Of a stretch of 64,000 nt of DNA, positions 31,987 through 36,917 are shown piece after piece. Made by a program: the position numbers and the translations under genes. The number at the start of each line of letters is the position of its first letter. Positions within the stretch are counted from its first letter, which is position 1. Where the stretch lies: assembly GCA_000004985.1 (NCBI GenBank), contig GG738863.1, one strand, 5' to 3'. The stretch comes from Naegleria gruberi (Eukaryota). The notes under the pieces are model-generated. The model did not search any database and was not told where the DNA came from. It worked only from the letters and a program-made list of their open reading frames with translations.

Positions 31987-33444
31987 TTATTGAAAATCTG
32001 AGGAGAGATGCAATATTTTGGGTAGTTTGACTTTAAGTATTTCTAAATTTTCTGATAATTCAGCCTTTTCATTTCTTAGCTGATTGAGAGCTTGTTCCAA
32101 ACTATTTACTATTTGACTATTTTTCAAAAAGTTAGATTCTAGATTAGTATTTGCTTCCTTAAGAATTCTAATCATTTCCACTGATTTCTGTAATTCTTTC
32201 TTGTATCTATTTGACTTTTCAATGAGAGTTTGTTTTTCTTGCTCATTCGCATTATCCTTGTGAGATAGAGTATTTTCGTATTTATCTTGTTGCTCCCTTA
32301 GTTGACTATTCAGAGAATTCAAAAGCTCTTGGCTATTCAAATGTTGAGATTGGTAATAATTCTCCTTCTCACGAAATTCGCTTTCAAGCCTATCCACAAT
32401 CGAGGTCAGATTGGAAATCTCCTTTTTGAATGACTTCTCTTGTTCCTCTGTTTTTAAAGCAAATTGTTGACTTTGATTTAGCATTTCCTCTTGAAACTTC
32501 TTATTCTCTGACCTTAATTGATCAACCAACAGTTCCAATTTTTCATTCTCCTTCTTTAGTTTTTCCTTTCCCAGATTTTCATTAAATTGCAGCTTTTGAA
32601 ATTCAAAAATTGTTTTCTTCTCTTCTGCAATTGCTCTCAAAAGTTCATCTTGCATGATGGTCAACTCTTCACATTCTGCTCTTTTATGTTCAAAATTAAT
32701 TTTAAGGGTGTTTAATTCTGATTTTAATCTGTCATTCTCATTATGATTTTTTGTCAACTCATGTTTGACATGTTGTAATTCTTCTCTCATCTCACTAGAT
32801 TTAATTTCAAGATTCATCAATTGATTATTCCTCCTATCCAACTCTCCTTGAACAACTCCTTGTTTGTACATATTCAATTGATCCTGAATTCCATTCTTCT
32901 GTAGACGAAGTTGTTCAGCATATTCCTGAATTGAACTTTTTTCATGAATCAATTGAGAAACTCTCACTGAATCACCACTCATTAATTGATTAAGATTGTT
33001 CAATTTTTTAATTTCCTCCTTTAGGTGAATCACTTGTTTCGAAAAATCCTCAATCCTCATCAAATTCAAATTTCGTTCATTTTCTAATAATCTAATCTTT
33101 TCATCTCTCCAAATAATCTCATAATTACCAATATCATTGGCAGTCATATTCATCAATCCAGATTTCCTCTTCCCCTCACTTACCAAATTATTAATTGCAC
33201 TCAAATCAGAGCATGATGATTTAGCAGATGATGTAGTTTCGGATAAATAATGAGGGGAAGCAATTAAATCCTCATCAAACGAAAGTGGACCACTAGGAGA
33301 GCCCGAAGATTGAATATCAAACAATGATTGATTATAACAACCTCCTCCTCTACCACGAACAGCCCCATCATTTCCATTAGTATCATTATTCATTGTTATA
33401 TTTCCATCATCAGATGAAGATGATGAAGGCGATGAAAAATTCAT
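31987..33444 (-). CDS. Coiled-coil protein (485 aa) with an S/N/G-rich N-terminus
   Basis: There are long heptad-type K/E/L/Q-rich segments and no globular domain. ATG is verified. An E2F palindrome lies 40 nt upstream. Confidence 0.5.
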   Translation of the reverse strand: MNFSSPSSSSSDDGNITMNNDTNGNDGAVRGRGGGCYNQSLFDIQSSGSPSGPLSFDEDLIASPHYLSETTSSAKSSCSDLSAINNLVSEGKRKSGLMNMTANDIGNYEIIWRDEKIRLLENERNLNLMRIEDFSKQVIHLKEEIKKLNNLNQLMSGDSVRVSQLIHEKSSIQEYAEQLRLQKNGIQDQLNMYKQGVVQGELDRRNNQLMNLEIKSSEMREELQHVKHELTKNHNENDRLKSELNTLKINFEHKRAECEELTIMQDELLRAIAEEKKTIFEFQKLQFNENLGKEKLKKENEKLELLVDQLRSENKKFQEEMLNQSQQFALKTEEQEKSFKKEISNLTSIVDRLESEFREKENYYQSQHLNSQELLNSLNSQLREQQDKYENTLSHKDNANEQEKQTLIEKSNRYKKELQKSVEMIRILKEANTNLESNFLKNSQIVNSLEQALNQLRNEKAELSENLEILKVKLPKILHLSSDFQ

Positions 33445-33483
33445 TTTTTTTATTGTAAAGATTTTTGAAAATTGTAATTAAAT

Positions 33484-33495
33484 TTGGCGCCAAAT
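33484..33495. promoter_or_regulatory. Perfect palindromic E2F site TTTGGCGCCAAA, 40 nt upstream of the coiled-coil gene ATG
   Basis: It matches the canonical E2F consensus TTTSGCGCSAAA exactly and is an unusual GC-only hexamer in AT-rich intergenic DNA. Confidence 0.55.
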
Positions 33496-33513
33496 ATTGA
33501 TGGTAAAAGATCT

Positions 33514-34672
33514 TTACAAATCCAATGAATGGATTTTGTCCATGACAGTTTCAACAATACAGAGATTATCTTGAGTTTCGTATTCGTAGAGTAAACCCAT
33601 GGAAGAATCGTTTAGTTCAATAATACGCTCAGAACCATCTTTGAGTTTCATAACATCGAGAGTAAACAAGTCGAGACCTCCAAACAGTTGAGATACTTCA
33701 TCCATCCACAATCTATTGATTTAGAATAAAGTTTAGAATAAAATTTAAATGAATACTTACTTGTATCGTTCTTCAATAGTGTCGAGTGCTTTGAATTTCA
33801 TAGCTCCCCAATTCTAAAATATTAAATAATCAATTTCTATATTCTAAACTTACATTCTTCCATGAAGAATCACTACTTCTTTGATAAACTCTATAATGAT
33901 TTCCAATTTTTTGTAATCTCAAATCATAGTCAACTTGACAAAATGGCTCACAAGTAAAATAATCCTTATAAAGAGCCAGAACTGTTGTAAAATCAGTGAA
34001 ACTTGACTTGGTGTCCAATTTTTGTTTACCAAATCCTGCATGAACAGTTCCAACTTTACAAACAACTGGAAATTCTTGTGGTGTTGTCTTTTTCAGATTA
34101 AATTAAAATGAATTGTATTCAAGCTCCTTACCTTTTCATTCTCATCAAAGAAATCAGTGCTTCTAATGTTAGGATAATAAATTTGTGGAATGAGTGGGAA
34201 ATTTTCAAATCCTCCCAATTTCTTTTGAATTTCCTTCAATTTTCCATAAATAATTGGTTTTTCACTGCACATGTAAACAGATTCCAATGAATTAACAGCA
34301 GGAATATCTAAATTTACGATAAATAATCATCAAAATTCAATTATTTCCATTAAATAATCCAAAATTCAATAAGAAACCTACTTGCAAACATTAAACCAAG
34401 TAAAACATTTCTAAAAGTTTCAGTGTGGAGAGAACTTGGGAAATTTCTAACCAAAACAAAATCTGGTTTGAAATCACGATCCTTGGATTGTTGGCTGAAC
34501 ATGGAATCATTCTTTGCCTTCAATTCCAATATTGGACCATATTCACTATTAGAAACAAGTTTAATTTCCTCCCAACCAGCTTGTTCAACCTTGATCTTTT
34601 TACCTTGTTTTGTTGTCTTGTTTGCAAATAATTTGTACCAATTTGATTGATCCGATTGATTATAGTCAATAA
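33514..34672 (-). CDS. Synapsin-family ATP-grasp protein (synapsin C-domain homologue). At least 5 exons: about 34382-34672, 34132-34307, 33854-34087, 33761-33813 and 33514-33712. The 5' end and start codon are unresolved.
   Basis: The spliced product ...DWYKLFANKTTKQGKKIKVEQAGWEE...FKPDFVLVRNF...LLGLMFAN|IPAVNSLESVYMCSEKPIIYGKLKEIQKKLGGFENFPLIPQIYYPN...|TTPQEFPVVCKVGTVHAGFGKQKLD...[100 protein letters not shown] is collinear with vertebrate synapsin domain C. The matching vertebrate segments are [70 protein letters not shown] and [43 protein letters not shown]. Confidence 0.7.
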
Positions 34673-34886
34673 CTAGTAAATTAAATGAAGATGTTGTAAC
34701 TTGATGACATTTTTTTTTGATTTGTTGATTTCACAAGTTCAAACACCACCAAACAACACAAAGAATTGCAACATGGAACTCTGAAATCAACTTGAACTGT
34801 AATTCAATTGAACAGTACAAGTATTCAAAATAAGGAAAGTCAAGTTGAATGGGTCTTATTTGAATGATAGAAAACTTGTTACAATT

Positions 34887-36917
34887 TTATTCATCAGAGT
34901 GAATGGTATCATGTTGAAGAATCATATCATCTTCCTGTGGTTCAGTTTGATTATTGGTGGTGGTATTCTTTTGCAATTTCTTCTTTTTCTTTGCATGTCT
35001 TTCTAATCTTTGATGATACTTTTGACTGTGAGAGGCAACTTGAATTCTAGTTCTGGTTTTGACATATCTGTCAGCGATTTCTCTCCATTTACCATAACCC
35101 AAGTCCTTTAAACCTCTGAGGAATGCTTGGTGTTCTCTTTCTGACCAAGCTCCTTGGTTGACTCCTTCTTCCTTAATGTCAGAGTTGACAAATTTCATCT
35201 TTTTTGATGATTTTTCAACAATGAGATTTCTAAAGCAGAATTTCTTTTGATTGGAATCAGATGAATCATTGGAATCATCATCTAATAGTGCTGCATTGCT
35301 ATCTTCTGGTAGAATTTTAGTGGGTTGAGATTTCTCATCAAAGTCGAATTGTGATGAACTGGCAAGAATAATTTCTTGATTGGAGAGTTGAGATTCTGAG
35401 GAATGACCTTGAGATTTGATCTTTTTCTTCTTTTCAGGTGTGCCTTCTTTCGCCTTTCTCTTTTTTCTATTCTTTGAGTTGGATGGTGAATTAGTAACTG
35501 CTGGTTGACTAGGTTGATTTGACTTTTGATTGTCAATTGACTTTTGGCTATTTGAACCAAATTGATAACTAGGATGATGACTCATAAAACCAATATTGCA
35601 ACTATCATTAGATCTTGGAGTATTGTTTAGTGAATGTGATTGAACAGCAATGGTATTTAGTGGAACATGTTTCTCTAAAAGTGGATTCTCCTTATTAAGA
35701 AAAGCATTTTGATTAAATTGAGCATTAAATATATTCTCAGCAAGAAATCTTTCATTTGTTCTCTGAGCATTCATAATAGAGTTCCAAACCAATTGTTGAT
35801 CAGTTGGTTGTTGTTGCTGTTGTGCTTGTTTCATCAAACTTGGATCAACGTATGAATTTTGTTGAATTCTTTCTTGATTATTGAGAATTATTTGTTGCAT
35901 GTTGAGAAGTTTTTGCATGGTTGTTTGGTTGTTAGAATTTAATGCATCATAATTGAATGGATTATTGTACAATTCGTTGAAGGAGAGGTTTCTTTGTTGA
36001 GGTTGACTAGTGGATGAAGTGCAGGTTAGAGATTTGCCAGTGGAGGCGAAAGATAATTTGGAAGATTCGTCTAGTAAATCTCTTGATGGAAACTTGAATT
36101 CATTTTCATTATTTACAGTACCTAGAAGAGGAGATGATAGTGGAGGAAGTGGAAACTGATCAGTTTTTTGTGGAATTAGAGCACTTCCTGCATTGAGAGG
36201 AACGGTTGTATTAGTTTCGGCTACTTTAGAATATCTTCTCTGTTCCATAAAACTGAACAAGGAATTATCATACTCTCCAATATCATTCTTCTTATCGCTT
36301 AGAGTATGTTCACCAAAAGAGAAGCAACTATCTTCCTTATTGGTTGCATTAAAAACATTATTGGAACCAAAGAGTCCTATTCCTCCTTCCAAAGAATCTC
36401 TTGAATTTTCAATATCGAAAATTGAAGAGAGTCTTCTTTCTCTATTACCAAACCCTCCTTGGGAAGATTGATTCATAGAAGAAACTAATCCAGAAGAGGA
36501 TTGATTGACGACACTTTGTGGTTGAGTACCACTAGATCCCAATTGAAAGGGATCGTTAGGATTTGAGAATGGATTCATTGAGAGAAAGTCAAAACCACTA
36601 TTTGAGTTCATATTAGTATCTTCGAGTGGTGTTACATTTGAAACTACTCCTATTTGATTTGCTTGTAAATGAGAATTTGCTGATGTTGCACTCGATGAAG
36701 GAACCACTCCAGAGAAGAGTGAATGTTGTGAGAAGGGTAATTGAGGATTCACTCCAGCAACACTATTAGAGGTTGCTGAGGCTGCAGTTGTAGATGTTGC
36801 AAGTGCTGATGATGATAATGATGATGGAACTGTTGCTGAGGTAGTTGTAGATGTGAATGAAGAAGGACCAAATTGATTCATATTATTAGTATTTGCAACA
36901 TTACTCATTACTTTCAT
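34887..36917 (-). CDS. Myb-like DNA-binding protein of the SHAQKYF class, with a long S/N/Q-rich N-terminal region. The 5' end is probably interrupted by the assembly gap.
   Basis: The C-terminal Myb/SANT repeat is AWSEREHQAFLRGLKDLGYGKWREIADRYVKTRTRIQVASHSQKYHQRL, a SHSQKYH variant of SHAQKYF. A basic NLS-like stretch is present. The reading frame stays open upstream of the track ATG as far as the N run. Confidence 0.6.
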   Translation of the reverse strand: MKVMSNVANTNNMNQFGPSSFTSTTTSATVPSSLSSSALATSTTAASATSNSVAGVNPQLPFSQHSLFSGVVPSSSATSANSHLQANQIGVVSNVTPLEDTNMNSNSGFDFLSMNPFSNPNDPFQLGSSGTQPQSVVNQSSSGLVSSMNQSSQGGFGNRERRLSSIFDIENSRDSLEGGIGLFGSNNVFNATNKEDSCFSFGEHTLSDKKNDIGEYDNSLFSFMEQRRYSKVAETNTTVPLNAGSALIPQKTDQFPLPPLSSPLLGTVNNENEFKFPSRDLLDESSKLSFASTGKSLTCTSSTSQPQQRNLSFNELYNNPFNYDALNSNNQTTMQKLLNMQQIILNNQERIQQNSYVDPSLMKQAQQQQQPTDQQLVWNSIMNAQRTNERFLAENIFNAQFNQNAFLNKENPLLEKHVPLNTIAVQSHSLNNTPRSNDSCNIGFMSHHPSYQFGSNSQKSIDNQKSNQPSQPAVTNSPSNSKNRKKRKAKEGTPEKKKKIKSQGHSSESQLSNQEIILASSSQFDFDEKSQPTKILPEDSNAALLDDDSNDSSDSNQKKFCFRNLIVEKSSKKMKFVNSDIKEEGVNQGAWSEREHQAFLRGLKDLGYGKWREIADRYVKTRTRIQVASHSQKYHQRLERHAKKKKKLQKNTTTNNQTEPQEDDMILQHDTIHSDE

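Follow-up and report, generated by a model that had tools for sequence, protein, structure and literature searches.

Within a 64,000-nucleotide (nt) stretch of the Naegleria gruberi genome (contig GG738863.1; here called the window, to which all coordinates refer), the minus strand of positions 33514 to 34710 carries a gene for a synapsin-like protein. The overall best explanation of this gene, to which we give a probability of about 90%, is that it is a native N. gruberi member of a family of stand-alone synapsin domain C proteins. Reading the translated reverse complement of positions 33440 to 34900 gave five coding exons and four short GT..AG introns, and the joined exons (34688 [or 34710]-34382, 34307-34132, 34087-33854, 33813-33761, and 33712-33514) form a single open frame that ends at a TAA at 33516-33514. 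The product, ~320 to 328 amino acids (aa) long, consists of the two lobes of synapsin domain C only. Small proteins of this kind would make up a family with members in Heterolobosea, Amoebozoa, and Asgard archaea, and in animals, where the domain is the core of synapsins. The original prediction had proposed that a protist-like genome carries a multi-exon ATP-grasp gene of the synapsin family (domain C); Pfam, PDB, and Foldseek searches bore this out, and all three of the synapsin-like peptide stretches that it quoted are present in the minus-strand translation, distributed among its three frames as a split gene would lead one to expect.

In Pfam, the protein matched Synapsin_C (PF02750) with an E value of 3.8e-50 (170.7 bits against a cut-off of 22.5; residues 106-315 of 320) and the synapsin N-terminal domain (PF02078) with an E value of 8.6e-20 (71.3 bits; cut-off, 23). 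The sole further Pfam match was the generic ATP-grasp profile R2K_3 (E 0.004, 17.7 bits), which fell under its threshold of 26.3. A phmmer search against all PDB sequences returned synapsins II, I, and III only, with E values of 7e-64 (synapsin II, the top match) to 3e-59 over residues 12-318 (~305 residues). An AlphaFold2 model of the N. fowleri ortholog, which is 81% identical, had a mean pLDDT of 91.7 and a pTM of 0.89, and when this model was compared with PDB structures by Foldseek, the best 15 matches were all synapsin C domains (E 1e-35 to 1e-31; template modeling [TM] scores up to 0.87/0.94; root mean square deviation, ~2 Å). The next tier, ~20 orders of magnitude weaker at ~1e-13, comprised RimK, LysX/ArgX, D-Ala-D-Ala ligases (Ddl), and macrocyclases of ribosomally synthesized and posttranslationally modified peptides (RiPPs), such as MdnB.

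Because the original prediction had named a generic bacterial-type ATP-grasp family, such as RimK or glutathione synthetase, as the competing assignment, the position of these ligases deserves attention. RimK, LysX-ArgX, D-Ala-D-Ala ligase, and the microviridin-type macrocyclase share the superfamily fold and the same D/E...E-x-N metal logic with the synapsin-like protein, but RimK-type ligases are only 12 to 15% identical to it, align with TM scores of 0.52 to 0.66, give no significant profile match, and belong to a different family. No RimK/GSH-S or other characterized ligase family scored above threshold in Pfam or NCBIfam, and the NCBIfam profile search as a whole gave nothing significant (the best, MptN, reached 12.6 bits where 350 are needed). 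A specific synapsin affinity thus emerged from the profile, sequence, and fold searches alike.

Sequence comparison with other species further indicates that the gene is native to Naegleria, vertically inherited, and selectively constrained, and that it is neither contamination nor a recent transfer from an animal. Its best homolog is N. fowleri FDP41_002792 (P0001; 81% identity), followed by Willaertia magna ABK040_002247 (64%) and Acrasis kona AKO1_008087 (57%; named "Synapsin" in UniRef), and these three orthologs have the same two Pfam domains and fall in the same length class; amoebozoan and animal homologs are ~40% identical. N. fowleri has the same four intron positions and the same neighbors as N. 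gruberi, with a Myb gene upstream and a gene for a ~500-aa protein downstream, and a metagenomic relative that resembles Naegleria (L002) shares three of the four introns. The GC content of the window is 31 to 35%. Among N. gruberi, N. fowleri, and L002, the Nei-Gojobori ratio of nonsynonymous to synonymous substitution rates (dN/dS) was 0.07 to 0.11, an approximate figure, as dS (1.2 to 2.1) is near saturation. In bootstrapped neighbor-joining trees, the heterolobosean sequences formed a clade with 100/100 support whose internal order matches the species relationships, apart from the metazoan synapsins, which formed a separate 100/100 clade; the Amoebozoa contributed several divergent paralogs that did not form one clade. 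These trees are unrooted and speak to clade support only, since the RimK-type proteins, at 12 to 15% identity, provide no usable outgroup.

The idea that the gene encodes a generic RimK- or glutathione synthetase-like ATP-grasp protein, or that it reached the assembly by animal contamination or recent horizontal transfer, is refuted by these observations. In its favor are the automatic IMG annotation of two metagenomic relatives as "glutathione synthase/RimK-type ligase-like ATP-grasp enzyme" and the subthreshold R2K_3 match, but the RimK/GSH-S profiles were not significant, RimK-type structures matched far more weakly than synapsins, the introns, base composition, and synteny are of Naegleria type, and the protein groups with other Heterolobosea, apart from Metazoa, with 100% bootstrap support.

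The gene itself is not new. Candiani et al. (2010, BMC Evol Biol 10:32, PMC2825198) described "NaegleriaSyn" as having a single domain that resembles synapsin domain C, and they reported a protein of Entamoeba histolytica as likewise synapsin related with a single C domain. Additional file 5 of that paper gives its source as JGI scaffold_19:385514-386710, whose length of 1,197 nt equals that of window positions 33514-34710, and the 320-aa NaegleriaSyn of Additional file 7 is identical (320/320) to our first spliced model. The gene, the protein, and its interpretation as a C-domain-only synapsin relative have therefore been known since 2010, and the present finding is a correct rediscovery. The novelty implied by the original prediction also fails on a second count, in that databases hold annotated homologs from many Heterolobosea and Amoebozoa. 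Amoebozoan members include Entamoeba ("Synapsin, putative"), Pelomyxa ("synapsin II"), and sequences from Physarum, Ceratiomyxa, Soliformovum, and Luapelamoeba transcriptomes. E. histolytica EHI_127220 (XP_652171) and the other amoebozoan members are stand-alone C-domain proteins of ~310 to 430 aa, ~40% identical to the Naegleria protein, with the same D...E-x-N-D motif, from a different eukaryotic supergroup. Our searches of the literature on protist synapsin function found nothing relevant beyond Candiani et al. and expression and association tables that list Entamoeba EHI_127220.

The features of the gene are as follows, all on the minus strand.

33514-34710, minus strand: whole synapsin-like gene, orthologous start codon to stop, 1,197 nt; same span as JGI scaffold_19:385514-386710

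34708-34710, minus strand: orthologous start codon ATG, with an A9 leader before it; shifted by +1 relative to the remainder of exon 1

34683-34707, minus strand: interval holding the frame disruption; any single-base deletion here restores an ATG-initiated open reading frame (ORF)

34673-34700, minus strand: 28-nt "intron" of the published/JGI model, rejected here; encodes conserved SSFNLLV in the exon frame

34382-34691, minus strand: exon 1, the conserved stretch that is in frame (SSFNLLVIDYNQ...LGLMFA), covering most of the N-terminal lobe of synapsin (PF02078)

34308-34381, minus strand: intron 1, 74 nt, GTAGGT..TAG, phase 1; matched in position and phase by introns of N. fowleri (121 nt) and L002 (45 nt)

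34132-34307, minus strand: exon 2, 176 nt (NIPAVNSLESVY...DENEK)

34088-34131, minus strand: intron 2, 44 nt, GTAAGG..AAG, phase 0; also present in N. fowleri (71 nt) but not in the metagenomic relative L002

33854-34087, minus strand: exon 3, 234 nt, ATP-grasp core

34057-34055, minus strand: exon 3, invariant Lys of FPVVCK in the family alignment (equivalent of K269 of synapsin I [SynI])

34027-34025, minus strand: exon 3, Lys of GFGK

33949-33947, minus strand: exon 3, Glu of CEPF

33919-33917, minus strand: exon 3, Arg of YDLRLQK

33814-33853, minus strand: intron 3, 40 nt, GTAAGT..TAG, phase 0; inside the flexible ATP-covering loop

33761-33813, minus strand: exon 4, 53 nt

33713-33760, minus strand: intron 4, 48 nt, GTAAGT..TAG, phase 2

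33514-33712, minus strand: exon 5, with stop TAA at 33516-33514; carries the metal-binding triad

33657-33655, minus strand: exon 5, Asp of FTLD (SynI E373 equivalent)

33618-33607, minus strand: exon 5, E-L-N-D (E is the SynI E386 equivalent)

In the N. fowleri ortholog, each of the four introns falls at the same codon position and in the same phase (1, 0, 0, 2) as in N. gruberi, and both species have internal exons of 176, 234, and 53 nt; because positions, phases, and internal exon lengths are all identical, the four N. gruberi introns are independently validated, which also supports the original claim that the exons are joined. Five exons had been predicted correctly, but introns had been described as 44 to 74 nt long with GTAAGT donors, whereas the shortest is 40 nt and two of the donors are GTAGGT and GTAAGG. 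Similarly, the predicted span of 33514-34672 was right at its 3' end and too short at its 5' end, as the gene reaches at least 34691 and the orthologous ATG lies at 34710-34708. The two species differ in that the N. fowleri gene has longer introns (67 to 161 nt) and an intact, ATG-initiated exon 1, while the N. gruberi copy has a disrupted frame at its 5' end. The metagenomic relative (L002:1119-2240; JGI metagenome 3300002220, contig MLSBCLC_10192701) is 79% identical and has lost intron 2 while keeping introns 1, 3, and 4. In that contig, a prokaryote-style gene caller made two calls out of the gene and read through intron 1, apparently with TGA taken for Trp.

N. gruberi (ATG at 34710-34708), N. 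fowleri (L001:6001), and the metagenomic relative (L002:1119) all have ATG TCA T... behind an A-rich leader. The N. fowleri ORF continues directly from this ATG as MSSQPNSSLFNLLIIDYNQ; the corresponding N. gruberi frame reads MSSSYNIFI for 9 codons and then meets a TAA at 34683-34681, and the conserved SSFNLLVIDYNQ (SSFNLLVIDYN) sits one base out of register with the ATG. The conserved N. gruberi frame itself has no in-frame ATG before Met61. The original prediction was correct that no ATG is found in the most upstream recognizable exon, and judged by comparison with the relatives, the 5' end that it had left open is a 1-nt frame disruption. Deleting A34692 yields MSSSYNSSFNLLVIDYNQ, the version that aligns best with N. 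fowleri MSSQPNSSLFNLLIIDYNQ. The most likely cause of the out-of-frame start codon would be a 1-nt assembly error or a strain-specific indel; without the extra base, the protein would start MSSSYNSSFNLL, and its likely true N terminus, once the disruption is removed, would be MSSSYN-SSFNLLVIDYN... (~328 aa). The corrected N terminus improved the match to PF02078 from 71.3 to 77.0 bits and extended coverage of the profile from positions 14-103 to 5-103.

The N terminus of the published NaegleriaSyn, MSSIIDYN..., is unlike this corrected model and rests on the 28-nt intron at 34700-34673, which would have hidden the frame disruption if it is artificial. If that intron were real, it would join ATGTCATCAA to TTATTGAC and give MSSIIDYNQ... 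as the true start; it has GT..AG ends, it restores the frame, and it is the model of Candiani et al. as well as our own first model, which was rejected on comparison with N. fowleri and L002. However, read in the exon frame, the 28 nt encode SSFNLLV, which has counterparts in N. fowleri (SSLFNLLI) and L002 (MSFNLLV), neither of which has an intron at this site, and SFNLL alone at a fixed position would be expected by chance with a probability of ~3e-6. Splicing would also delete a Leu that is conserved in at least 90% of the family, and the resulting protein scores lower on PF02078, as given above. Compared with the 11 validated introns of this gene family, which range from 40 to 161 nt, 28 nt is too short, and the donor GTTACA has a T at +3 and a C at +5, found in 0 of the 11. 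We therefore regard it as highly improbable that the published model is correct.

Two further ways of supplying a start codon were considered and rejected. An upstream exon beginning at ATG 34774 and spliced to the AG at 34701/34700 was judged by eye to have a poor donor (GTGGTG) and to encode a nonconserved hydrophobic peptide, and it is also opposed by the conserved A-rich leader and ATG TCA at 34710. As for near-cognate in-frame starts, only a weak ATC lies upstream, and such a start is unsupported.

If the disruption is real, the copy in N. gruberi strain NEG-M could be a recently inactivated pseudogene whose frame breaks after codon ~6 and which makes no full-length protein. Consistent with this, the orthologous start codon opens a shifted frame that stops after 9 codons, no in-frame ATG precedes Met61 in the conserved frame, and the gene seems to lie outside the catalogued set: a database of 5.8 billion proteins, N. 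gruberi proteins included, held no protein with more than 81% identity to the synapsin-like product, and Candiani et al. could give scaffold coordinates only. Taken together, the last two facts suggest that the catalogued N. gruberi proteome lacks the gene, although a short fragmentary model ranking below the listed hits is possible, and the 5' frame problem may plausibly be the reason for this absence. An independent copy of N. gruberi exon 1 was sought in the metagenome collection in two scans, and none turned up. On the other side, the remaining ~320 codons are fully open, the four splice-site pairs are intact, identity to N. fowleri is 80% with a dN/dS of ~0.1, and the same facts would follow from one wrong base in a draft Sanger assembly or from a single haplotype of a heterozygous strain. 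Inactivation of the gene is therefore, in our estimation, improbable.

To examine the active site, we used a family alignment of 120 members, with Naegleria residues counted from SFNLL.... All 120 share the Lys of VVxK, the Lys of GxGK, the Glu of EPF, and the W-K in the flexible loop, and 117 have the Arg of DxR. Every ATP- and metal-contacting residue is in place in the Naegleria protein (the VVCK Lys, K172; the GFGK Lys, K182; the CEPF Glu; the DLR Arg, R218; the W-K loop), and the ATP-grasp metal triad D...E-x-N-D is complete (D276 and E289-L-N291-D292), as it is in all named protist members of the alignment. K172 is the equivalent of SynI K269, a numbering that is consistent with the K-to-E373 spacing of 104 in the alignment. 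Like those of K172 and the W-K loop, the D276 and E289 columns are invariant or conservatively substituted across the 120 members. An Asp/Glu...Glu-x-Asn triad marks active ATP-grasp enzymes, for example, D257/E270/N272 of DdlB and E276/E288/N290 of biotin carboxylase.

The C domains of animal synapsins I, II, and III (PDB 1AUV, 1AUX, 1PK8, 1PX2, 1I7L, 1I7N, and 2P0A) have the same fold at ~37 to 40% identity and share with the Naegleria protein the ATP-contacting Lys, Glu, and Arg and the flexible W-K loop. In contrast to the canonical triad of Naegleria, vertebrate synapsins read E/K...E-V-V/M-G at these positions, the upstream Asp having become Glu (Syn I) or Lys (Syn II), the Asn having become Val or Met, and the final Asp having become Gly. 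From the sequences compared, loss of the catalytic-type triad seems to be lineage specific within animals. Among the arthropod synapsins sampled, N-D is kept, and two aphid sequences have Gly instead of Glu. Animal synapsins also add domain A with its phosphorylation site, domain B, proline-rich domain D and related regions, and domain E, none of which occurs in the Naegleria protein: domain A (PF10581, Synapsin_N) gave no match there but is present in the vertebrate matches, and the proline-rich or disordered regions (domains D to J) and domain E are absent. The domain C match nearly spans the protein, leaving ~8 residues ahead of it and 5 between its end and the stop codon. The protein has no membrane- or vesicle-binding extension.

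Homologs of this protein are also found in archaea. A scan of prokaryotes (one genome per species, using two peptide patterns taken from a 7-sequence alignment; not a census) returned a single gene of synapsin type, carried by a 24-kb contig in a "Candidatus Heimdallarchaeota" metagenome-assembled genome (MAG) (L003, JAOUKW010000014.1:1-655). This gene stays open over the 217 residues that the contig contains and matches Synapsin_C at 1.1e-66; its neighbors encode a GNAT acetyltransferase and a histidine-kinase ATPase domain. Further full-length two-domain proteins (~296 to 300 aa) from other MAGs came up when its protein was used as the query; one is "Candidatus Hodarchaeota archaeon" MFX0102514.1. 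The contexts of four such genes are as follows.

L006:10001-10891, on a 52-kb contig: Asgard synapsin-type gene adjoining an archaeosine-type TGT (TGT+DUF5591+PUA), a Toprim primase, EPSP synthase, chorismate synthase, and GatA-GatB

L009:8154-9044, in an independent assembly: Asgard synapsin-type gene in the same PAP2-EPSPS-chorismate synthase ... GatA-GatB-synapsin-like order as in L006

L008:4862-5764, on a Hodarchaeota contig: Asgard synapsin-type gene with a Ras/Roc GTPase adjacent

L010:10001-10900, on a 47-kb contig: Asgard synapsin-type gene with dnaJ-dnaK-grpE and an Arf/Ras/Roc GTPase

The neighborhoods of these Asgard genes are genuinely archaeal. When three of the archaeal proteins (P0157, P0139, and P0138) were scanned, all passed both Pfam thresholds (PF02078 and PF02750), and D...E-L-N-D was found in 5 of the 5 archaeal sequences read. 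In the unrooted tree, the five archaeal proteins form a 100/100 clade that is ~40% identical to each of Heterolobosea, Amoebozoa, and Metazoa, roughly equidistant from the three; the archaeal presence may reflect vertical descent or an ancient transfer. Our literature searches found no paper joining synapsin with Asgard archaea; supplementary domain tables could hold one.

What might the Naegleria protein do? Naegleria has no synapses. Synapsin is a member of the ATP-grasp superfamily in which ATP binding is conserved and no activity is known (PMC3249071), and in SynI, E373 and E386 coordinate Ca2+ beside the ATP phosphates, with ATP binding promoting oligomerization (PMC9678998). By analogy, the flexible loop would cover Mg- or Ca-ATP bound in the ATP-grasp cleft, and ATP-stabilized dimers or tetramers would form as in the synapsin C domain; judged by homology, the Naegleria protein very probably does bind metal-ATP and oligomerize in this way. 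A role as a phospho-regulated, condensate-forming vesicle tether or vesicle-clustering scaffold is unlikely, because the domain A phospho-switch, the proline-rich disordered region, and domain E are all lacking. The reading that we favor, although at somewhat less than even odds, is that the protein still works as a carboxylate-amine ligase, for which it is a likelier candidate than vertebrate synapsins and which would perhaps act on a peptide or protein carboxylate, since it retains the canonical Asn/Asp and its next structural relatives (RimK, LysX/ArgX, and the RiPP macrocyclases) act on peptide or protein carboxylates.

It is also possible, though we find it more doubtful, that the protein is an ATP-regulated oligomer without catalysis, which would do no more than bind ATP and a divalent cation and in which a switch between monomer and dimer or tetramer would tether membranes, vesicles, or cytoskeleton in the amoeba. 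ATP binding and ATP-driven oligomerization are the only biochemistry documented for the family, the fold match to ATP-bound synapsin C domains is very close, and a STRING-type link connects the Entamoeba "synapsin" to Rab GTPases and Sec1 (PMC8514894), on the basis of coexpression and text mining only. Such a purely binding role fits less well with the complete D...E-x-N-D kept by protist and archaeal members, even though vertebrate synapsins show that the fold tolerates its loss, with the placement of the archaeal homologs among metabolic and translation genes (gatA-gatB and the shikimate pathway) rather than membrane-traffic genes, or with the missing membrane- or vesicle-binding extension.

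Several points weigh against the overall picture of a functional, possibly catalytic, domain C protein in N. gruberi. The structure model is that of the N. fowleri ortholog and not of the window's own protein, the dN/dS values are blind to very recent inactivation, and a real frame disruption might mean that the NEG-M copy is not translated normally. Furthermore, pure ATP/metal binding would account for the conserved triad equally well, and enzymatic activity has never been shown for any synapsin-family protein (PMC3249071).

The genes on either side are also of some interest. Directly upstream, an ORF of 676 aa (34887-36917, minus strand) with a Myb domain and the motif SHSQKYHQRL matches XP_002678241.1 (NAEGRDRAFT_48527) exactly, and N. 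fowleri has a Myb_DNA-binding gene at the same upstream position. The original prediction had described the setting as dictyostelid-like with a fungal-type factor nearby, a description that does not hold, as this exact match places the window in N. gruberi (Heterolobosea, Discoba). Directly downstream, an ORF of 485 aa (31987-33444, minus strand) has a Ser/Asn-rich N terminus followed by a heptad-rich part that looks coiled-coil-like by eye; its only Pfam signal is a weak, subthreshold match to BLOC1_2. The exact sequence of this ORF is not in the protein collection, and the annotated N. gruberi model, if any, differs. At its position, N. fowleri has a gene for ~507 aa without Pfam domains.

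As given, the finding matters little, because the gene, the protein, and their interpretation were published in 2010. The bearing on pre-neuronal synapsin origin and function that the original prediction had seen in it is also slight: the protein alone says little, since domains A, B, D, and E of the neuronal vesicle regulators are all absent. Three results keep some value: the corrected 5' end, a triad that stays intact outside vertebrates, and the homologs in archaea. The first of these is a concrete annotation fix for the N. gruberi reference and probably explains the artificial N terminus of the published protein, while the Asgard homologs, together with a triad kept outside vertebrates, move the question of origin from "pre-neuronal" to "pre-eukaryotic." More speculatively, and in our view unlikely on present grounds, the synapsin C domain may derive from a stand-alone ATP-grasp enzyme of the Asgard lineage, with the Naegleria, amoebozoan, and archaeal proteins still carrying out an ancestral ligation that was lost when the domain was recruited as a vesicle tether in vertebrates. 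If this were true, finding the ancestral reaction in the Naegleria, Entamoeba, or Asgard protein would answer a 25-year-old question about the "enzyme-like" C domain, and these small, soluble, single-domain proteins are tractable material in which to find the long-suspected enzymatic activity of the synapsin fold.

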